Of a DNA stretch of 32,000 nucleotides, positions 1,868 to 32,000 are shown piece after piece. The translations under genes were made by a program, and so were the position numbers. Position 1 is the first letter of the stretch. Every line of letters starts with the position of its first letter. The notes under the pieces were generated by a model. The model was not told the origin of the DNA and ran no database searches. It saw only the letters and a list, made by a program, of their open reading frames with translations. The stretch comes from Promethearchaeota archaeon (GTDB lineage Archaea > Asgardarchaeota > Lokiarchaeia > Sigyniarchaeales > Promethearchaeaceae). The stretch is taken from NCBI GenBank assembly GCA_016933055.1, contig JAFGBS010000031.1, positions 82,465 through 114,464 on the forward strand. Direction: 5' to 3'.

Positions 1868-2575
1868 CTAATCCAATTGTTTCTTAAACAATACTAATCC
1901 CATTTTTATAAAAGACTTGCATAGGCTGTAGACTCGGGTGAGGGGTACGTCAGTTTCATCTGCGATAGTTCCCAAATCTTTCACTCCATCAATTGCTTGG
2001 AACACTAATTTGGAATCATTACTGGAAAACAAGTCGTATATACCTCGTTCATATATCTTCTTAATTCTTTTATAGGGAACTAAACTCGCATCGAACTTGG
2101 AAATATTACCTCCGCTAAATTCTTGAGGATTTTCTAGACTATCTTTATGATGGATTATATTTTCTAAAATTGTTTCAAAATCCTTGAATATCTCGGTTTC
2201 TCCATCCCATTTGTTTTCCGTAATGAATGGAAATCGGCGGATAAACGCGGAACTAATTTTTTTTAACATAGCTTCAACCATAGTCCCTTCGATATCCTTT
2301 CCCTTGGATGCTCCTACAAATAACAGATTATGATCATTTGGCGGTTTAAAAAACAAGAAACTTACATCTTCCATCTTCATTTCCTTCATATTTCCAAGGG
2401 CATCAACATTTTTTGCGAACGAGTTGATAGCTGATAAAAATCCTGATATCATCGTAATCTGGTCTTCATTTGGACGGCTATTGTCATATAAACATTCATT
2501 TCTAGTAAATATGGGAAGCCCGTTTTTTAAAATGAACAAATCGTTTAACATCGGAGACACATTAGCTTTAGCCAT
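1868..2575 (-). CDS. Soluble longin-like domain + C-terminal winged-helix protein (Asgard-type; NPRL2-like architecture)
   Basis: Longin-like pattern LFILKNGLPIF...MISGFLSAINSFAK...MKEMKMEDVSFLF...AFIRRF...WDGETEIFKDFETIL. C-terminal IDGVKDLGTIADETDVPLTRVYSLCKSFIKMGLV is wHTH-like. Start reassigned from TTG 2644 to ATG 2575 (ATG 2551 is also possible). Confidence 0.65.
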   Translation of the reverse strand: MAKANVSPMLNDLFILKNGLPIFTRNECLYDNSRPNEDQITMISGFLSAINSFAKNVDALGNMKEMKMEDVSFLFFKPPNDHNLLFVGASKGKDIEGTMVEAMLKKISSAFIRRFPFITENKWDGETEIFKDFETILENIIHHKDSLENPQEFSGGNISKFDASLVPYKRIKKIYERGIYDLFSSNDSKLVFQAIDGVKDLGTIADETDVPLTRVYSLCKSFIKMGLVLFKKQLD

Positions 2576-2644
2576 CTCTTGTCGAATAATGAACACCTTA
2601 GAATCTAAATAAGTGAGTGTACTATCTTCATAACACAGCTTCAA

Positions 2645-16509: not shown

Positions 16510-17580
16510 TTATCTAAATTTGGATAGATCTAATTCGAATAGTCCGTGGTCTTTAATCACATCTAATATTTTTTCAATTAATAACTCAAGATTTTTTTTA
16601 TCTTTAGCATTGGTTCGTATTATAGATAGATTTCCTATTTCTGGCTCAATTTTTTTCTGGAGTTCTTCCATTTCTTCATCTGTTGCAAGATCCATTTTAT
16701 TGAATATAATTATGCAAGGCACACCCACCTTATTGATGAATTCATGCAAGATTTCTTTGAATAAGGATATTTGATGATGTATTGAATAACCTGATGTTTT
16801 CGACGGATCAAAGATAAAGATGATAATATTGGAAATTGTTCGCAATGCCAGTATCGCTTTTTTCTCAATATGATTACGTTCGATCATCGGTCGGTCTAAA
16901 ATTCCTGGTGTATCAATCAACTGGAATAATTTAGTGTCTTGGGCATCTTTATATAATCCTATGATTATCTCTTTGGTGGTGAAAGGGTATTCTCTGATTT
17001 GAGGTTTGGCAGTCGAAATAGCCCTAACCAGGCTTGATTTTCCTACGTTAGGGTAACCCGCAATAACTGCTGCTGGAAGCTCCGTATCAATTACTGGGAT
17101 AGACTTTAATTGCCTTCGGGCCTTTTCTAAATATTCCAATGTATTTTTCTGTGCTTTAATGACGGATGCAACCCGTGCATAATATTGTCTTCGCACTATA
17201 CTACATTGATTTGAGCTGGTTTGCTGGTTAATTTCCCGAATTTTTGAGGATAATAATTTCTGCAAGACAGGAATTATTCCATTCAATCGTCCCAGATTAT
17301 TTTTTAAAATCTCTTTATCTACTAAAAGATGACTTAATTCTTGGTAAAAAGGATGTAATTCATCTAAATTGGGAACAGATTGGATGATATTTTTAATCCG
17401 ATTTACAATATAGGAATTAACATTTTGAATTCGATTTACTTCATTTCTTTTTGCTTTTAAAACATTATCAAAGCGTTGAGGAATTGGGGCAGTTTTTTTT
17501 GAGCTACGACCGAATGCAATGTCAATGAGTTCTTCTGCGCTAGGAACTGGATAAAAATTTTCAAAAGGATTCTTTGCCAT
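16510..17580 (-). CDS. nog1: NOG1-family (Obg/DRG-like) GTPase, large ribosomal subunit biogenesis
   Basis: N-terminal helical NOG1 region (ELIDIAF.R...LHPFY.EL), G1 AGYPNVGKSSL, G2 YPFTTK, G3 DTPG, G4 NKMD. Start ATG 17580 or 17592. Confidence 0.9.
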   Translation of the reverse strand: MAKNPFENFYPVPSAEELIDIAFGRSSKKTAPIPQRFDNVLKAKRNEVNRIQNVNSYIVNRIKNIIQSVPNLDELHPFYQELSHLLVDKEILKNNLGRLNGIIPVLQKLLSSKIREINQQTSSNQCSIVRRQYYARVASVIKAQKNTLEYLEKARRQLKSIPVIDTELPAAVIAGYPNVGKSSLVRAISTAKPQIREYPFTTKEIIIGLYKDAQDTKLFQLIDTPGILDRPMIERNHIEKKAILALRTISNIIIFIFDPSKTSGYSIHHQISLFKEILHEFINKVGVPCIIIFNKMDLATDEEMEELQKKIEPEIGNLSIIRTNAKDKKNLELLIEKILDVIKDHGLFELDLSKFR

Positions 17581-17863
17581 TGGTGGATGCACCGGTCACA
17601 CGTTTTATATATAGAATTTGGTTTGTTTGCTCGTTGAAAATCTTTTCTATTCTGTGAAAGGGAATCCGAATTCTTTCTTGAATCGCAGAATTCCAATATT
17701 CAAATGAATCCGAATGGATTTCGAGTAAATTTTCAAATGCAATAATTAAATAATCTTTAGGGACCCCCCGATGTGTATATTGAATCATGACATGAGTTTT
17801 TTGGCTGGAATACTTGGGGTCCCATTTGATTTGATTTAGTAATTCACGAATTGTCAGCAACAA
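17561..17863 (-). CDS. DUF504 (MJ1316-like RNA-end-recognition domain) protein
   Basis: IRELLNQIKWDP, I.Y.HRG and IPFHRIEKI motifs. Confidence 0.8.
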   Translation of the reverse strand: MLLTIRELLNQIKWDPKYSSQKTHVMIQYTHRGVPKDYLIIAFENLLEIHSDSFEYWNSAIQERIRIPFHRIEKIFNEQTNQILYIKRVTGASTNGKESF

Positions 17864-24133: not shown

Positions 24134-24299
24134 AGGGTATTTTTTTACAATTCTGTATTTCTTATACTATTTTTTCTATACTTAAGCATTTACGAGGTAT
24201 TTAACAAATTATATAAACAGAGTAATTTCATAATATCGATTTGCTCAAAACAGACAAAGATATCTAATTTCTGTGATTTCCTGAAAATAGGTGCAAAAA

Positions 24300-27200
24300 A
24301 TGAGAAAAATTAACTTTAAGATAACATACTCACTTAGAAAACTTAATAGATTAGTATTTATCACGTTTTTCATCCTTTTAACAATATCTGCTGCATCAGT
24401 CCCATTATCTCTCCATGATAAAGGATACGAAACTGATACAGAAATAAATGAGATTATTATGACAACTCCAGAATCCTCAGATCTATTCGAAAATAACATT
24501 CTCTATTCAGGGATTGAAAATCCATTAACTGTCAATGAAACTGCTATCCACTCTTCCACCAACCATTTTACTATTGGGAATGGAACGAATTCTCTATACT
24601 CATCTCAATATGCGGAATTTCCCATAGATTCCACGCATGATTGGGAGGGATATTACTATAATGCAACCTTTACAAATATCCAAGATGAACGTGATTGGAT
24701 CGAACAAGGGGATATGGGAAGTGATTCGGGATTAGTTGGATTAGTCAAAACAACACTTGGCACCCCCATAGAATCACAACATGACTACCAAAATAATCAA
24801 GATGCAGATCCTTCTGATCCTGATGGAACGATAACCAGTAACAGCGATTTTGTTCGAGTACATTTCAGTAGGTTTGAAGTAGAAGATGGTTATGATTTTC
24901 TGTATGTTTATGATGGTTCCAATAATTTGATCGATTGTATAACTGGATTGTATCCCCTAGGATTGAATTCAAGTATGTACAATGCAACCATTCTGAAATT
25001 TTCCATCCAATCTGACGGAACTGTTAGAGAGTGGGGATACTCCATTGACTATATTGAAGAAATAAATCAAAGTACTTGGAGAACTTATAAAACTTACATG
25101 AATCCTGAATTTGCTAATTCCAAAATTAGTGAATTAGGAGGTGCATCTTCCTTAGGAGCATCATTCATTGGTGATTATGACAGTTATGATGGTTCATATG
25201 ACTATTATATCGGAGAAGTAGGATTTTATGAAGAATTTATAGTTCCACGTGGTAAGGTTACAGATGCGTGGTTCTCAATGGATTATTATTTAAATAAAGG
25301 GCTTGAATCAAACGATTTTCTGATTTATTGTAAAATAAATGGTGAATTTGTTTACACTCGAGGATTTGGAACAATAATCAATTTAGGACGAAATTTATGG
25401 CATTCAACAGGAGCAATTAATCTCCTACTATGGGAAAATGCTACTCAGATATTTAATCCAACCATTCAAAATCAAAACTTGAATATATCCTTCGGCATTT
25501 ATGCTCCTTTCTCCTGGGGTTATTACGGTGGTGAGGATGTAATTCAGCAAGAAGCCTTTTTTGATAATATATCATTAGTCTTAAAAACTGAAGCAAATTG
25601 TACTCAGATCGGTATTAATTTACAAATCGATGGTTTATCCGTATCTGAATCCCCTTCCTGGGGTTCAGGATCTTTAACCAAGTATGGATCATGGGATAGC
25701 AATCCAATGCAACTGCTTTTAAGTACTGATGCAGAAAAATTGGAATTTGATCTCAACTCGAAAATATATGGATATCATACAGATTCTACGCATGAACAAA
25801 CCAATGGAGTAACTGGAGCAAGAGTCACGATTTTTTCAAACGACACGATTCAATGGGATTCGTATCATAATGTTTTCGTCCCATCCCAATATTCTGAATT
25901 CTCTTACAAGGTTTACAAACCTTTTGATTGGAATATCACAAATGTTGAGGATCCAACAGGTTTACAACATTTGAGTTATATTGGTGGTGATATAGGCGAG
26001 AATAGTTTTATAATTGAAAGTGATTTTTTGGGTTGGTGGTATTTTGAAGCGAAATCAGATAGTCTATTAATATCTTCATCTACAGACTTGTGGGATGAAT
26101 TAACATGGAAAGATTATGATAGCGAAGATATCTCTTATGATATTGGAGATAGTATAAGAATTAGAACAGCTGTTTCCAATCCGAGTCTCATTGGCAATTT
26201 GCTCTCTACAACAGCGAAAATTACGGTGTATTACCCAAATGGAACGATTTATTACACAGATCATGCAAATCCAGATGGTTCTGGTAATATACAATTTTCA
26301 GATCATGGGATCTTGGCAGCCAATACTTCTGGCGGGGTGTATCAATATAAAATAATATGGACAAATGGAACTGCTGCTGGTGGGCTAAATGGTTCATTTG
26401 AGATCAAGCATGCTATTCAACATACACTCCTTTATCCAAGAGATGCAATATTAGATTATAATACTGAAGCAGTATTCGGAGATATAATCCCTGTCCGATT
26501 GAAATTAAATGATTTAAATACTGGGATATTATTATCTGAATTAGACGTTGAACATAATTGGATCACGGGAAATAATACACTAACAAAAATGGGCTCTGGA
26601 ATTTATGATGTTTCATTTGACACGCTTGATTTACCAGGAGTTGGGAAATATGAAGTAGATTTCACTGTCTCTGGACTAGGATTTTATTCCATTTATTTCA
26701 CTTTAAATATTAGTATTGTCTCAGAAACAGAGCTAAAAATCATAGGATTAGATAATAACATTGATTACGGAACGAATTTTACTATAGAAATTGACTATCG
26801 CACAAAACCTGAACCAATCGGAATTCTTAATGCTCTGATTACCACTAATATTACAGATTATTATGTGGAAGAACAAGTAATTGATGGGCATTATTTGATA
26901 GAAATTAATTCTTCAAGTTCCTTTGTAGGTGCTGGAACATATGACATTCAGATAAATGCATCTCAAACAGATTATTATTCTCAAGTATTGGTGACCCGTA
27001 TTCAAATCCTTCCCAGGTCGATATATTTTGAAATACATATCAATTCTGTTGATTGTACATCAAATAAATCGTATGCTACTAAAATCCAAGAAGATCTGCA
27101 CTTCTCAATAGGAGTTTATACAGTATCAGGGGGTATACCCGTATTGACTGGAACTGTACAGTTATCTGATGGAGTTTCATACTCTTCCCCCTTCTCTCTA

Positions 27201-28445
27201 ATAGAAAATAGATATTATAGCATGATCGGATCCTCATTTTTTGGATTGGGAGTAAATTTTATTAGCATTATTTTCAATGAGACTGGTTACCAGTCTGCTT
27301 CGGAGATTTTACAAATATCTGTGACCCGTATAAACTTAGATGCGATATTTCAAGATTCTGATACCATGTTGGTAACCAGTAGGGATGATTTTTCTACACG
27401 AATTTTTTTAAAAGATCCCAGAACTTCAAATCCGATTTTAAATGCAACGGTTACGTATAGCTGGACCTTCGGTACGGGTTTTCTAACTGAAATCGGAGAA
27501 GGGTGGTATGAATTTTCAGAAACTGCTCCTACTCAATCTGGAACCTACAAAGTGACATTTACTATTACACCTGTAAATTCTGATTATGAGATTTTAACCA
27601 TGCAAATGACTCTTGTTTCACAAAAACCAGATACTATTGTGAAATGGTGGTGGATAGCGATCCCGGTTGGTGCTGTTATTGCAGTTTTATCCGGTTCTTT
27701 AATTGCTATAGGAGTAAAACAAAAACAAACGAAAACCCGAGAACAAGAAATCGCACGATTAAAACTAAAAACTCAGATTTTTGATGACATAACTAACATC
27801 AAAGGCATTCTTCTGATAGAGAAACACAGCGGTTTGCTGATGTATAGGCATGTATTAAGTGGTTTGGACGAAGAGAATGAAGAATTATTCTCAGGTTTCA
27901 TAAGAGCAATTCTTCTATTAGGTAAACGATTTATCCGAGATGAGGAGGAGATTGAAAAAGGTATGGTATTTGAGAAAAAAGAGTTCATTGAATTTACTCA
28001 CGAAAATTTCAAGATTTTGTTGGTGGGTGGTCATAAAATAATTATGGCACTTATTCTTGAACAACAAGCTTCGAAAACTATTCGGGAAAAAGCAACAAAA
28101 TTCATTGAAGAATTCGAGGGGATCTATGGATCAGTTTTAGAGGGTTGGAATGGAAATCGAAATGTATTCGAAGACACCACTCCAAAGCTATTCGAGGAAA
28201 TCTTCAATCTCTCTTTATTAAAAGCATTCAAATTAACAGACAATTCTAAAATTTACGAGAAAAAATTGATTACTCCAGGTTCCATCTCAGAGCGAGTTTC
28301 GAATGTAATACAAACCCTACTTGAAGAAAAGGAAAGTTTTCATTTGAAAACCATCATTTCATTAATACCTGAAGGTGACCAACTTGCTGCTAAAGAAATA
28401 ATCCTGAAATTTATAAAAGGGAAATATATTATTCCTTTGGATTAG
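24300..28445 (+). CDS. Large single-pass receptor-like surface protein, paralog 1: leader / CUB-like / beta-rich / Ig-like repeats / TM / cytoplasmic longin-like + putative winged helix
   Basis: Hydrophobic leader LVFITFFILLTISAAS. CUB-like ESQHDY...VHFSRFEVEDGYDFLYVYDG...FSIQSDGTVREWGYSIDY (about 24768-25058). Repeated Ig-like strands. TM WWWIAIPVGAVIAVLSGSLIAIGV (27645-27716). Tail LFSGFIRAI...WNGNRNVF. ATG 24300 has AGGTG 6 nt upstream. Confidence 0.8.
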   Translation: MRKINFKITYSLRKLNRLVFITFFILLTISAASVPLSLHDKGYETDTEINEIIMTTPESSDLFENNILYSGIENPLTVNETAIHSSTNHFTIGNGTNSLYSSQYAEFPIDSTHDWEGYYYNATFTNIQDERDWIEQGDMGSDSGLVGLVKTTLGTPIESQHDYQNNQDADPSDPDGTITSNSDFVRVHFSRFEVEDGYDFLYVYDGSNNLIDCITGLYPLGLNSSMYNATILKFSIQSDGTVREWGYSIDYIEEINQSTWRTYKTYMNPEFANSKISELGGASSLGASFIGDYDSYDGSYDYYIGEVGFYEEFIVPRGKVTDAWFSMDYYLNKGLESNDFLIYCKINGEFVYTRGFGTIINLGRNLWHSTGAINLLLWENATQIFNPTIQNQNLNISFGIYAPFSWGYYGGEDVIQQEAFFDNISLVLKTEANCTQIGINLQIDGLSVSESPSWGSGSLTKYGSWDSNPMQLLLSTDAEKLEFDLNSKIYGYHTDSTHEQTNGVTGARVTIFSNDTIQWDSYHNVFVPSQYSEFSYKVYKPFDWNITNVEDPTGLQHLSYIGGDIGENSFIIESDFLGWWYFEAKSDSLLISSSTDLWDELTWKDYDSEDISYDIGDSIRIRTAVSNPSLIGNLLSTTAKITVYYPNGTIYYTDHANPDGSGNIQFSDHGILAANTSGGVYQYKIIWTNGTAAGGLNGSFEIKHAIQHTLLYPRDAILDYNTEAVFGDIIPVRLKLNDLNTGILLSELDVEHNWITGNNTLTKMGSGIYDVSFDTLDLPGVGKYEVDFTVSGLGFYSIYFTLNISIVSETELKIIGLDNNIDYGTNFTIEIDYRTKPEPIGILNALITTNITDYYVEEQVIDGHYLIEINSSSSFVGAGTYDIQINASQTDYYSQVLVTRIQILPRSIYFEIHINSVDCTSNKSYATKIQEDLHFSIGVYTVSGGIPVLTGTVQLSDGVSYSSPFSLIENRYYSMIGSSFFGLGVNFISIIFNETGYQSASEILQISVTRINLDAIFQDSDTMLVTSRDDFSTRIFLKDPRTSNPILNATVTYSWTFGTGFLTEIGEGWYEFSETAPTQSGTYKVTFTITPVNSDYEILTMQMTLVSQKPDTIVKWWWIAIPVGAVIAVLSGSLIAIGVKQKQTKTREQEIARLKLKTQIFDDITNIKGILLIEKHSGLLMYRHVLSGLDEENEELFSGFIRAILLLGKRFIRDEEEIEKGMVFEKKEFIEFTHENFKILLVGGHKIIMALILEQQASKTIREKATKFIEEFEGIYGSVLEGWNGNRNVFEDTTPKLFEEIFNLSLLKAFKLTDNSKIYEKKLITPGSISERVSNVIQTLLEEKESFHLKTIISLIPEGDQLAAKEIILKFIKGKYIIPLD

Positions 28446-28542: not shown

Positions 28543-31500
28543 ATGCCAAAATTAACGAGGTTTTATAAGAATTACATAATTTTGGCCATCCTTTTTTTGG
28601 GAATCTTTTCAAATATCAACACTAGGTTCCTGCCAGAAGTAAATAATACAATTTCTAAAGGAGTACACGATTCACCAGTCAGTTCAGATGTTTTTGATTC
28701 AGGAATCCTTTATTCAGGAATTCAAGATCCTTTAGGAATAAATGAAACGGCTATTCATACAGCAAGTGACCATTATACCATCGGAAACGGAACTAACCCT
28801 GATTATACCTCCCAAAATGCGGAATTTCCTCTTGATGTAACAAATGACTGGTACGGATATCGATACTCAGCTAATATCACTAATCTTGTGGATGAACAAG
28901 ATTGGATTTTAAACGGAAACTTTGGCAGCGATGTTGGTGTAACCCCTTCTACTCATATTGTACAAACATTTGAATCCTCCCATCCTTATGCTAATTCCCT
29001 AAATTCCGATCCCAGCGTCCTTGCAAACATAATAGCATCAATCGATGGAAATGGATGTAATTATATGAGGATTCATTTTGTGAATATTTCTACTGAGTGG
29101 AATCTAGATACACTTTATCTATGGGATGAATCCAATAATTTATTGGGTTGGTATGAAGCAAACTATGAAGATCTAATAACTCCTTGGTTTAATACATCTG
29201 TTGTAAACATCACAATGGAGACAAGTTCTTCGGGCACTGATTATGGGTTCTATATTGATTATTTCGAGACATATAATGGACAACTCTTTTCATTTAATTC
29301 TGATAACTGGACTCCCTATGGGAAAGGACTTGATTCAAGCAGAATGAATGCAGTCGCGAGTCATCAATTGAACAATTCTGCCATAAATGTTACACTAGCA
29401 GGAGTTCCGGGAACCGGGAATTCATACAGTTATAAATTTGATGAATCTGGAATATATCAAGAATTATCCATTCCTCGTGGAGGGGTACATGAAGCATGGC
29501 TCTCTATGGATTATAATGTACTTAGGGGGATTAATAACAATGAAATGATTTTATTTTTCAAAATTAATGATGTAATAATTTACCAGCGTGGATTTCAAAC
29601 TATTACGGGAGAGGGATTAACAAAATGGCATACCACGGGATTAGTTCAAATATCAATTCCTTCTTCAGTATTTAATGACCCAGTGAATGACCAAATCGTA
29701 AATATTTCTGTTGGTGTACAAGCAACAAAAAACAAAGTATATTCATTTAATCATGCGGACTTGCAGGAGGTCTATTTTGATAATATCACCTTAATTTTAA
29801 AAGCAGAAGTAAACTGCACTAATACGAATATAAACTTAAAAATTGATGGTCTTTCTCCGATTGATTCTCCTCTCCAGTGGGGAGAAGGAACTTTCAACCG
29901 ATTCTATGTCTGGGATACGAATCCAATTGAAATTTCATTAAGCACTGATACATTAAAGGTTGAATTTGACTTAGAATCTACAATATATGCTTTTCATTTC
30001 AATTATTCAAAACTGGAAGAGTATGGTGATGTAGGATCCCAAGTTATCATTTATACCAATAATTCTGTCCATTGGGAAACTTATTATCGAGTATATATTC
30101 CACTTTATTATGGGAATCTTGGATTTTCAGGAAACAAACCTCAAGATTGGGAAATGCTTCAGATTAATAATCCTCTAGACGATTCTGTGCCATTCTTAGA
30201 CGGGGAAAAAGGAGACGAGATATTTACGGTTGAGGGAGTAAATACTCCAGGCTGGTGGCGTTTTAAAGCAAGATCTACTAATATGATACCCTCCACTTCC
30301 ACAGAAGTATGGAATGGAATGGATTGGGAAAATTATCTTGATCAGATTACGTATAATATTAGCGATACATTGAGAATAAGAACCGCATTAAATGCATCAC
30401 TGGGTAATATTGAAAATAACGCCTCAACATGGGCTAATTTGACTATTTACGATCCAGACGATGGAGTATGGCATACTGAAAGTGTACATCCAGATATTAC
30501 AGGAGGAATTCAATTTTCTGATGTGAATATTGGTGCTTTTAATACAACGGGGGGAACCTATCGATACAAAATTATTTGGACAAATGGAACTAGTGCCGGA
30601 GGAAGAAATGGAACATTTATCGTTCAAAGAAACCTAGCATTTTCAATTTTGTATCCCAGAGACGCAATTGGAGATATGGTGACGGAAGAAATTCTCGGAG
30701 ATGTTATTCCACTTCGATTTATTTTGAATGATTCATTTACTGGAGTGAAACTGTCTAATTTACAGGTCCAATACAACTGGACTACTGGTACCGAATCTCT
30801 CATTGAAATTAGTCAAGGTATTTACGACGGAGCTTTAGATACTTTAGATTTAATGATTCCTGGCTATCACGAGATAAAATTTATAGCTTCTGGTTTTGGG
30901 TATCATAACTTAACTTTTATTTTAAAGGTTAATTTAGTTGAAGAAACCGAGGTAAAAATCATAGGACTAGACAATAATATCGATTATGGTACCAATTTTA
31001 GTATACGGATTAGTTATACATCAAAACATTTGAGCTATGGGATACCTGATGCCAATATCACTCTAAATTTATCTTCTACACACTATCTCGTCACCCCTGA
31101 AGTTGAAGATGGAAAATACATGATAGAGATCTCCAGCAAAGATGCATTTATGGGAGCAGGGTTTTATGACATTCAAATTAATGCTTCAAAACTCTATTTT
31201 CAAGATCAAGATATTGTCACTCGAATTCAAATCCTACCACGAACAATCTATTTCCAAATTTACATTAATTCTGCCGACTGCACCCTCAATAAATCCTATT
31301 CAAGCATCATAAAACGAAATCTAAATTTCTCGATTGGTATCTATTCATCAGCAGAACACTTACCTATATTAGAGGGGAGTGTATATATGACAGATGGAGT
31401 ATATACATCAGAAGCATTTGAAATTGTAGAGAGTTATTACTATTTGGAATTAAATACGTCTCAATTTGGATTAGGTACTCATTTTATCAGTATTATTTTT

Positions 31501-32000
31501 AATGAGACAAGTTATCAATCTGCATCTGAGAACCTAATGTTATCTATTACTCGTTTAAATTTTAATGCTTCATTTTACAACACCGAGGAAACCTTAGTTA
31601 TCGATCGGAACAAGGACTTTGAGGTGATTATAAGTGTTGAAGATCCATTGACTCATTTACCCATTACTGAGGCTAATATTTCCTATAGCTGGGTTTTTGG
31701 TCGAGGATTTCTGACAAATCTGGGTGATGGAAGATATGTATTCGAAGATTTAAGTCCCTACAATCTTGGTACGTATAAAATCACTTTTACAATTTCGTCA
31801 CCAAATGAGGATTATGAAACCACTACATTAACGTTGACTTTAGTATCTCAATTACCGGAAGGTACTTCCAGAATTTGGTGGTTTTTAATTCCTAGTGGAA
31901 TTGTAGCAATTATTACCACATCTATCTTACTTTTCAATGCCTACAAACGAAAAGTGATTATTCCAAGACAAGAACAGGAAATTAAACTACTAAGAAAGAA
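28543..32000 (+). CDS. Large single-pass receptor-like surface protein, paralog 2 (3' truncated by the window; not in the ORF track)
   Basis: I translated frame +1 from ATG 28543 (MPKLTRFYKNYIILAILFLGIF) to the window end with no stop (over 1150 codons). Collinear with paralog 1 (ILYSGI.DPL..NETAIH, GNGTN, YKIIWTNGT.AGG.NG, LYPRDAI, KIIGLDNNIDYGTNF, TRIQILPR.IYF, FISIIFNET.YQSASE). TM IWWFLIPSGIVAIITTSILLF near 31873-31935. Confidence 0.9.
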   Translation, partial: MPKLTRFYKNYIILAILFLGIFSNINTRFLPEVNNTISKGVHDSPVSSDVFDSGILYSGIQDPLGINETAIHTASDHYTIGNGTNPDYTSQNAEFPLDVTNDWYGYRYSANITNLVDEQDWILNGNFGSDVGVTPSTHIVQTFESSHPYANSLNSDPSVLANIIASIDGNGCNYMRIHFVNISTEWNLDTLYLWDESNNLLGWYEANYEDLITPWFNTSVVNITMETSSSGTDYGFYIDYFETYNGQLFSFNSDNWTPYGKGLDSSRMNAVASHQLNNSAINVTLAGVPGTGNSYSYKFDESGIYQELSIPRGGVHEAWLSMDYNVLRGINNNEMILFFKINDVIIYQRGFQTITGEGLTKWHTTGLVQISIPSSVFNDPVNDQIVNISVGVQATKNKVYSFNHADLQEVYFDNITLILKAEVNCTNTNINLKIDGLSPIDSPLQWGEGTFNRFYVWDTNPIEISLSTDTLKVEFDLESTIYAFHFNYSKLEEYGDVGSQVIIYTNNSVHWETYYRVYIPLYYGNLGFSGNKPQDWEMLQINNPLDDSVPFLDGEKGDEIFTVEGVNTPGWWRFKARSTNMIPSTSTEVWNGMDWENYLDQITYNISDTLRIRTALNASLGNIENNASTWANLTIYDPDDGVWHTESVHPDITGGIQFSDVNIGAFNTTGGTYRYKIIWTNGTSAGGRNGTFIVQRNLAFSILYPRDAIGDMVTEEILGDVIPLRFILNDSFTGVKLSNLQVQYNWTTGTESLIEISQGIYDGALDTLDLMIPGYHEIKFIASGFGYHNLTFILKVNLVEETEVKIIGLDNNIDYGTNFSIRISYTSKHLSYGIPDANITLNLSSTHYLVTPEVEDGKYMIEISSKDAFMGAGFYDIQINASKLYFQDQDIVTRIQILPRTIYFQIYINSADCTLNKSYSSIIKRNLNFSIGIYSSAEHLPILEGSVYMTDGVYTSEAFEIVESYYYLELNTSQFGLGTHFISIIFNETSYQSASENLMLSITRLNFNASFYNTEETLVIDRNKDFEVIISVEDPLTHLPITEANISYSWVFGRGFLTNLGDGRYVFEDLSPYNLGTYKITFTISSPNEDYETTTLTLTLVSQLPEGTSRIWWFLIPSGIVAIITTSILLFNAYKRKVIIPRQEQEIKLLRK

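Follow-up and report, generated by a model that had tools for sequence, protein, structure and literature searches.

The DNA considered here is a stretch of 32,000 nucleotides from a Promethearchaeota archaeon of the Lokiarchaeia (contig JAFGBS010000031.1, positions 82,465 to 114,464; hereafter the window), and the gene of interest lies at 24300..28445 on its + strand. Its product, P0001, is predicted from the open reading frame (ORF) and its translation to be a 1381-residue single-pass type-I surface glycoprotein. The ORF may start at a GTG at 24291, giving 1384 amino acids (aa), or at an ATG at 24300, giving 1381 aa, and ends at 28445; the database copy of the protein uses the ATG. Residues of P0001 are numbered from the GTG at 24291. 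Tail residue 1 corresponds to residue 1145, the tail comprising residues 1145-1384. The protein consists of a leader, a head that resembles a CUB domain nested in a jelly roll, a long stalk, one transmembrane helix, and a tail predicted to fold as a longin domain followed by a short winged-helix-like unit. A tandem paralogue (paralogue 2; 28543..32000, +, continuing on contig C27) follows directly and is 43% identical from the leader to the transmembrane helix. The tail is shared with a large family of membrane proteins across the phylum.

Two segments of P0001 reach transmembrane-grade hydropathy. The first, at residues ~17-42, has Arg/Lys before it and overlaps the leader (residues 4-36, 24300..24398, +), in which a basic n-region and a hydrophobic core would serve as a signal peptide or an N-terminal anchor. 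The second is the single transmembrane helix (residues 1119-1144, 27645..27722, +), recognised by hydropathy and flanking charges, with the basic stretch KQKQTKTR directly C-terminal of it. N-x-S/T sequons number 25 in the 1078-aa ectodomain vs. one in the 240-aa tail. The composition also differs between the two parts, the ectodomain being rich in Ser/Thr/Asn/Tyr and the tail in Glu/Lys/Ile/Leu. Based on hydropathy, the basic residues past the transmembrane helix, and the sequon bias, P0001 is consistent with a type-I protein whose ectodomain is glycosylated and extracellular and whose tail lies in the cytoplasm. These findings agree with an earlier note on this DNA, which had proposed a leader, a single transmembrane helix, and a cytoplasmic tail of roughly 240 aa.

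The tail was modelled with AlphaFold2 using an alignment of 62 family members, drawn from 395 relatives. The model has a predicted local distance difference test score (pLDDT) of 89.9 and a predicted template modelling score of 0.84. It begins with a juxtamembrane helix, a0 (tail residues 1-25, 27723..27797, +; helical at 2-25 in the model), which has a net charge of +2 in P0001, with a family median of +5, and contains the nearly invariant residues D22 and N25. The following segment (tail residues 26-166, 27798..28220, +; pLDDT ~90) is predicted to be a longin domain. DSSP assigns strands to tail residues 26-33, 39-44, 88-93, 96-102, and 106-112, and helices to 52-77, 118-139, and 147-166, which reproduces the five-stranded longin order b1-b2-a1-b3-b4-b5-a2-a3.

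Structural comparison of the model supports this assignment. An exhaustive VIA-align search found longins matching model residues 24-165, the closest being sedlin (Z 12.4, root-mean-square deviation (rmsd) 2.8, 126 aa aligned), followed by VAMP7 (Z 12.1), Sec22 (12.0), AP-5 sigma (11.7), and the Lokiarchaeota Roadblock-Longin protein of PDB 8yqg (11.5). Roadblock proteins (MglB, LAMTOR, and Asgard representatives) align to model residues 18-141 at Z 7.8-9.7, ~2-3 Z units below the longins. Foldseek searches of PDB and Swiss-Prot returned AP sigma, VAMP7, COPI zeta, SEC22, MglB, and NPRL2, with residues 6-234 of human NPRL2 aligning to tail residues 25-237. The longin character is not apparent from sequence comparison. 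The P0001 tail matches no Pfam family at E ≤ 10 except for a chance DUF2935 match, the 62 relatives produce a single match to the Pfam longin models (Intu_longin_1, E 0.0096), and a PDB sequence search with the tail alone or as a 62-sequence profile returned nothing meaningful.

The remainder of the tail (residues 168-240, 28224..28442, +) is modelled as a linker strand and helix, then a short winged-helix-like unit. Helices at 188-202, 208-213, and 217-232 and strands at 206-207 and 236-238, all at pLDDT > 90, give the winged-helix topology a1-b1-a2-a3-b2, with the last wing strand (b3) absent because P0001 ends there. Family members display recurrent sub-threshold matches to the winged-helix families DnaD_N (seven members), Rio2_N (four), DsrD (four), RuvB_C, RPA_C, and Rpc34, and some structural neighbours of the tail have been automatically annotated as ArsR, TrmB, or HTH_47. 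The unit has a net charge of -1 in P0001 (family median 0), while its third helix has a net charge of 0 (family median -2). This lack of basic character argues against DNA binding, and the family matches are mixed as well as sub-threshold. The combination of a longin and a winged helix, proposed for the tail in the earlier note together with a check by AlphaFold and Foldseek, was thus recovered in the predicted fold. A homodimer prediction with two copies of the tail scored 0.01 where controls were not run, and is evidence neither for nor against dimerisation.

A scan of 1.84 billion representative proteins identified the 395 relatives of the tail at E ≤ 1e-3. Among the 150 best, the cassette formed by the tail starts within ~25 residues of a hydrophobic helix in 138, and the remaining 12 are mostly fragments that begin inside the cassette. 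The proteins range from ~200 to 1955 aa, with ectodomains of ~20 to 1600 aa, and the cassette is usually the extreme C-terminus, with ~200 further residues after it in some proteins. The ectodomains above it are unrelated and nearly Pfam-dark, with any match at 1e-5 in only six of 59; the Pfam matches found are to FG-GAP_3, Laminin_G_3, Big_1, Big_3_5, and a caspase domain. In a census made up solely of sampled Promethearchaeota genomes, the tail profile matches 187 of 201, and 85 of the 86 high-quality ones, with several matches per genome in most. In the AFDB clusters and the ESM Atlas, structural matches to the whole cassette come from archaea, mostly Promethearchaeota. Across the phylum the cassette is conserved far better than the ectodomains. 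The genome studied here encodes five full-length copies, each after a transmembrane helix in a large protein, in addition to longin-only matches.

The cassette is therefore a Pfam-dark, phylum-wide, multi-copy unit that is coupled to a transmembrane helix and found under very different ectodomains. As its tail is such a cassette, P0001 is one of a large family rather than a singular system, a point that the earlier note had missed. No paper on a transmembrane-longin-winged-helix cassette was found in the literature searched.

Modules resembling parts of the cassette are also seen in other settings. Within the window, a soluble 258-aa protein encoded at 1868-2644 (-) is weakly similar to the tail (BLASTP E 0.013, tail residues 8-151). 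It has no Pfam match and shares a helix motif of the cassette, S-G-F-x-x-A-I; by sequence it may be a free-standing cassette relative. On the same contig, ~3.7 kb before the window (C5:78412-78759, -), a longin matched by the tail profile at E 1e-10 ends a polytopic membrane protein with ~10 hydrophobic segments, and one in-frame TAA lies inside the longin match. In a shape search of the ESM Atlas, bacterial clusters annotated OmpA/BON or SH3_3, from Pseudomonadota, Cyanobacteriota, and Chloroflexota, match the longin part of the tail at a TM-score of ~0.5. On the basis of these models, longin/roadblock-like modules may occur in bacterial envelope proteins too.

Several positions of the cassette are strongly conserved when the 62 diverse members are compared. 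The loop that precedes strand b2 holds G37, which is invariant and lies in an S-G-x-P motif, the Pro of which is present in 32 of the 62, P0001 having S-G-L-L at this site. The S-G-F-x-x-A-I motif of helix a1 is nearly invariant. The b4-b5 hairpin is flanked by an acidic residue (D/E102) and by R107, which is found in 60 of the 62. A catalytic Arg is known from longins that act as GTPase-activating proteins (GAPs), where the arginine finger is R78 in NPRL2, R164 in FLCN, and R147 in SMCR8. GAP longins of this type, and some Asgard longins, combine the finger with a GP motif in the loop leading to b2 or where b2 starts (PMC12290439, PMC8213707). By analogy, the resemblance of G37 and R107 to these two features is suggestive.

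P0001 stands alone among the 62-member set in combining G102 with I107. The Asp/Arg pair is likewise missing from paralogue 2 and from the nearest orthologues, the near clade having Ile, Val, or Leu at 107. More distant orthologues with the same ectodomain retain the pair, as do the remaining three of the five full-length copies in this genome. Arg-bearing copies include the genes at C27:192414 and C10:70402. In the sequences compared, loss of the Asp102/Arg107 hairpin is thus confined to the P0001 clade. As both tandem paralogues have lost it, the two proteins encoded in the window are more likely scaffold-only than catalytic variants.

The head of P0001 was modelled with AlphaFold2 from an alignment of 18 orthologues, with residues 149-439 at pLDDT ~80-90. 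Residues 153-260 (24747..25070, +; model residues 109-216) are predicted to form a CUB β-sandwich. The top eight VIA-align rows are all CUB domains (Z 10.0-10.7), headed by CUB1 of C1s (Z 10.7, rmsd 2.9, 98 aa) and including those of NRP2, enteropeptidase, Kremen, PCPE-1, and cubilin (Z 10.0-10.4, 14-26% identity). The CUBs of MASP, TSG-6, and neuropilin-1 follow at Z 9.2-9.9. These matches span model residues 108/109-216, with a few, including NRP2, extending to 249. Carbohydrate-binding modules (CBMs), the reelin N-terminal region, a MAM domain, and lectins also match the head at Z 9-10. The latter matches extend over model residues 91-392 but align only 120-160 residues, which points to a jelly roll enclosing an inserted CUB. 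In the model, the CUB hence appears to be inserted in a CBM/MAM-like jelly roll, with residues 264-439 (25080..25607, +) assigned as the CBM/MAM/lectin-like jelly-roll domain from VIA-align and Foldseek. Foldseek matches of the head include tandem CBM22 (E 3e-8) and CUB-EGF-CUB. The preceding region (residues 45-148, 24423..24734, +) is well conserved in the 18 orthologues, is modelled at pLDDT < 50, and probably adds strands to the jelly roll.

Sequence comparison supports the CUB assignment weakly. P0001 itself has no match to Pfam CUB (PF00431) at E ≤ 10, whereas three of the 18 orthologues are matched (best E 1.9e-5) and an orthologue-sized ORF of a same-family genome scores above the cut-off. 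With the head family profile as query, the PDB sequences matched best are the two CUB domains of neuropilin-2 (E 0.022). D202, in a 'Y-D' context, is invariant in 18/18 and aligned with the corresponding neuropilin-2 position. D242 ('S-D') of P0001 is likewise aligned with neuropilin-2, and is absent from paralogue 2 and P0159. The Glu of the Glu/Asp/Asp triad of Ca2+-binding CUBs would be E196 or E198, between which the alignment does not decide. Residues 150-262 contain only one Cys, so that the domain has neither of the two disulfides (four conserved Cys) typical of CUBs; one disulfide is missing from some animal CUBs as well. Among sampled genomes, Pfam CUB scores above its cut-off in 15 of 121 Asgard genomes vs. 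none of 14 control prokaryotes, and the Asgard ORFs concerned are mostly ~430-590 aa. The literature searched contained no description of an Asgard CUB domain. The earlier note had called for the same structural check here, and its CUB-like N-terminal domain is borne out by the fold and, less strongly, by sequence. Its overall layout holds, with a CUB-like head and a longin tail that the topology places inside the cell.

The head is followed by a membrane-distal stalk (residues 440-714, 25608..26432, +) and then by four tandem modules of ~95-110 aa (residues 715-812, 813-905, 906-1017, and 1018-1116; 26433..27638, +) delimited with hhalign. Using the orthologue alignment, hhalign relates the module at 715 to that at 1018 with 97.7% probability, 715 to 812 with 95.2%, and 812 to 1018 with 88.2%. 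Judged from these alignments, modules 715-812, 813-905, and 1018-1116 are clearly mutually homologous and Big/Ig-like, while module 906-1017 is weaker (62% vs. the 1018 module). Invasin_D3 is matched in six of 15 orthologues (best E 8.4e-5, residues 1045-1094, in the last module), at scores of 18-23 bits against a cut-off of 33, and PKD matches of the last module are also sub-threshold. A feature search of the ESM Atlas with residues 440-720 gave no usable match. About five Ig-like modules had been proposed for this region; three to four of them can be recognised, and residues 440-714 gave no assignment.

The tandem arrangement is conserved. An exact overlap of 87 nucleotides joins window positions 31914-32000, at the end of contig C5, to C27:1-87. 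Read across this join, paralogue 2 is a full-length protein of 1374 aa that shares the transmembrane helix and longin/winged-helix tail, the tail being 58% identical to that of P0001. No third tandem copy was found after it. In a related genome (L018:9001-20086) there are three tandem paralogues instead of two, with the same upstream genes as here (dUTPase, GNAT, PALP, RpiA, methylase, and the major facilitator superfamily (MFS) gene), and in a more distant Lokiarchaeota genome there is one copy only. The first paralogue at L018, P0154 (1262 aa), covers only 42% of the tail query and its tail seems shortened. P0001 has 17 full-length homologue clusters, and these, the 395 representatives that share its tail, and the tandem paralogue establish that the ORF is not a chance one. 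A search for longer homologues returned nothing beyond close relatives.

The neighbours of P0001 are housekeeping genes, encoding a dUTPase, a GNAT acetyltransferase, a pyridoxal phosphate enzyme, RpiA, a D12 methylase, an MFS transporter, and a NOG1-type GTPase. The last of these, a ribosome-biogenesis GTPase encoded at 16510-17592 (-), lies 6.7 kb upstream of the P0001 gene and is syntenic at L018. It is not of Ras/Arf type and is no candidate for a tail partner of that class. A promoter and terminator scan of the locus, made with bacterial-type models unsuited to archaea, could not be distinguished from shuffles. The sequencing runs containing this DNA are sediment and hot-spring metagenomes, with no RNA run among those listed.

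Comparison with characterised systems shows both shared and distinct features. The eukaryotic longins (sedlin/TRAPPC2, VAMP7, Sec22, Ykt6, the N-terminal AP sigma/mu domains, and COPI zeta) and 8yqg have the same fold as the tail, in the order b-b-a-b-b-b-a-a, at Z 11.5-12.4 over ~120-130 residues but with identities of just 5-14%. Unlike the eukaryotic domains, the tail longin lies C-terminal to a transmembrane helix, under a large ectodomain, and has a winged helix after it. Longin SNAREs display the reversed order, with a cytosolic longin, a SNARE motif, and a C-terminal anchor. The GATOR1 subunits NPRL2/NPRL3, FLCN, SMCR8, and the Asgard 'NPRL2-like longin' proteins resemble the tail in layout, a small C-terminal domain coming after the longin. 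The cassette family has an invariant Gly before b2 and a near-invariant Arg that may correspond to the GP motif and finger of the GAP longins, the Arg being missing from P0001. However, NPRL2/NPRL3, FLCN, and SMCR8 are soluble, whereas P0001 is anchored by a transmembrane helix and has neither a DENN nor an NPRL2-specific domain. Ragulator (LAMTOR1-5) and MglB/roadblock proteins (fold Z 8.7-9.7) share the logic of a membrane-held longin/roadblock-fold platform that docks GTPases, although Ragulator is lipid-anchored via LAMTOR1 and is not fused to a surface protein as the cassette is.

Likenesses of the ectodomain are of a different kind. The CUB domains of metazoan proteins (neuropilins, Kremen, cubilin, C1s/MASP, enteropeptidase, and PCPE-1) match the head at Z 9.5-10.7 and an rmsd of ~3 Å over ~98 residues, and neuropilin-type receptors also present an extracellular head on a single-pass protein. 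P0001 differs from metazoan CUB receptors in that its CUB is nested in a jelly roll and its cytoplasmic tail is unrelated. Adhesin stalks of the Big/invasin/PKD type resemble that of P0001 in having tandem β modules of ~95-110 aa by the membrane, with all scores for P0001 below the Pfam cut-offs.

The reading preferred here, to which a probability of about 0.5 is given, is that the P0001 tail, anchored at the membrane, acts as a docking platform beneath a surface protein that binds ligands or mediates adhesion. The ectodomain would present a CUB/jelly-roll ligand-binding head on a stalk with three to four Big/Ig-like modules next to the membrane. Below each surface protein, the cassette would tether a partner from the cytoplasm to the inner side of the membrane, either a small GTPase of Arf/Rag/Rab type or a soluble adaptor of the longin/roadblock kind. 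Such a platform may couple surface adhesion or ligand binding to membrane or cytoskeleton remodelling, or to the sorting and turnover of surface proteins. Published work presents longin and roadblock domains as GTPase platforms and documents Asgard proteins in which they are joined to a GTPase (PMC10933270, PMC4917890). Asgard longins are abundant, and fusions of NPRL2-like longins as well as of longins with GTPases are on record (bioRxiv 10.1101/2020.10.19.343400; PMC10933270; PMC10936438). The genome studied here encodes one fusion of a longin with a GTPase, a 294-aa protein (L024:299-1183, -; genome C17:468098-468982) consisting of a longin (residues 2-116) and a Ras/Arf/Roc-type GTPase (130-266). 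Its longin is related to that of the tail (hhalign 92.7%, E 4.4e-7) and has the G-F-x-x-A motif in common with it. As domain-fusion evidence, this indirectly supports a GTPase-related role for longins of this class.

A number of observations weigh against a docking platform. No small-GTPase gene adjoins any of the five cassette genes. The nearest are 5-36 kb off, which is no closer than chance in a 3.76-Mb genome with ~50 genes of Ras/Arf type. Arf/Ras genes were also seen at 3 and 6.5 kb in one Lokiarchaeota relative, distances that are unremarkable as such genes are so numerous. The earlier note's proposal that an extracellular cue is coupled to small-GTPase or transcriptional output thus gains no support from neighbouring genes or from the non-basic winged helix. 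No cytoplasmic partner of the cassette was found. Similarity of fold is not proof of function, given that longins serve SNAREs and coats without GTPase contact. P0001 has no Pro after G37, and has G102/I107 instead of the conserved D/R surface pair. The topology comes from heuristics only (hydropathy, sequon bias, and the positive-inside rule). Parts of the ectodomain are also poorly defined, namely residues 45-148, which are the first 104 of the head model and have a low pLDDT, and the distal stalk (440-714), for which Pfam, PDB, and the Atlas gave no match and hhalign no relation to the downstream modules.

A possible, though clearly less favoured, alternative is that P0001 is a purely structural envelope protein or adhesin. 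Its tail would then only anchor, oligomerise, sort, or quality-control the protein, with no signalling and no GTPase partner, and might for example help to organise a non-S-layer Asgard envelope. This would suit the heavy sequon load and the long β-rich stalk, and the lineage-specific expansion to two to three tandem paralogues with fast-diverging heads is typical for surface proteins. The lack of an adjacent GTPase gene, and the loss of Asp/Arg in the P0001 clade while the domain was kept, point the same way. Lokiarchaeal cells are also known to have many complex surface proteins and no ordered S-layer (PMC9834061). However, a two-domain cassette of 240 aa is more than anchoring alone needs. 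Conservation of the cassette throughout the phylum, beyond that of the ectodomains, and the invariant surface-loop residues G37 and R107 are likewise difficult to reconcile with a passive tail, as are the GTPase-fused relatives of its longin in the same genome. An explanation by archaeal S-layer or PGF sorting was set aside in view of the 240-aa folded tail after the transmembrane helix.

The conserved residues raise the question of catalysis. It is unlikely that the wider family represents a membrane-anchored GAP-type longin resembling FLCN, NPRL2, and SMCR8, an analogy in which R107 would be the arginine finger, G37 would occupy the GP position, and the two window genes would encode inactive pseudo-GAP partners. 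The invariance of G37 before b2 and the near-universal R107 at the b4-b5 hairpin are what this idea would predict from the GP motif and finger of eukaryotic and some Asgard longins (PMC12290439, PMC8213707). Also in its favour are the structural alignment of NPRL2 with the tail and the Asgard fusions of an 'NPRL2-like longin' described by Liu et al. (bioRxiv 10.1101/2020.10.19.343400). Yet the family motif is S-G-x-P, with the Pro in only about half of the members, and not G-P, the best fold matches are SNARE, TRAPP, and AP longins rather than FLCN/NPRL2, and P0001 has Ile at 107. Least probable is a membrane-tethered transcription regulator of ToxR/CadC type, with a sensing ectodomain and a winged helix that binds DNA directly or after proteolytic release: P0001 does end in a winged-helix-like unit with some neighbours auto-annotated as ArsR, TrmB, or HTH_47, but this unit is non-basic and truncated, without the second wing strand, its weak family matches include protein-binding as well as DNA-binding winged helices, and it would be unusual for DNA-binding regulators to occur beneath unrelated ectodomains, at several to a dozen or more per genome.

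A docking platform of this kind would be of consequence for how Asgard cells might use their GTPases. Asgard archaea have dozens of small GTPases and longin/roadblock proteins of unclear role and, to our knowledge, lack the lipid anchors by which eukaryotes place GTPases on membranes. A longin platform just under the membrane in phylum-wide surface proteins would offer a testable route from the cell surface to the GTPase machinery, which bears on syntrophic cell-cell contact and on protrusion models of eukaryogenesis. P0001 adds to this family a CUB head, a conserved tandem array of two to three paralogues, and the clade-specific loss of the Asp/Arg hairpin. The predicted CUB places a fold usually regarded as an animal extracellular module on an Asgard surface protein, while the Arg-less tandem pair and the Arg-bearing paralogues provide a natural biochemical comparison in one genome. 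A bolder and rather doubtful extension is that the cassette is a prokaryotic transmembrane transducer, in which a ligand of the ectodomain controls recruitment of, or GTP hydrolysis by, an Arf/Rag/Rab-like GTPase at the plasma membrane. If true, Arg-less copies such as P0001 would be regulatory pseudo-enzymes paired with Arg-bearing copies, and the cassette would be an ancestral form of the membrane-parked longin/roadblock platforms of eukaryotes, such as Ragulator, GATOR1/FLCN, and TRAPP.

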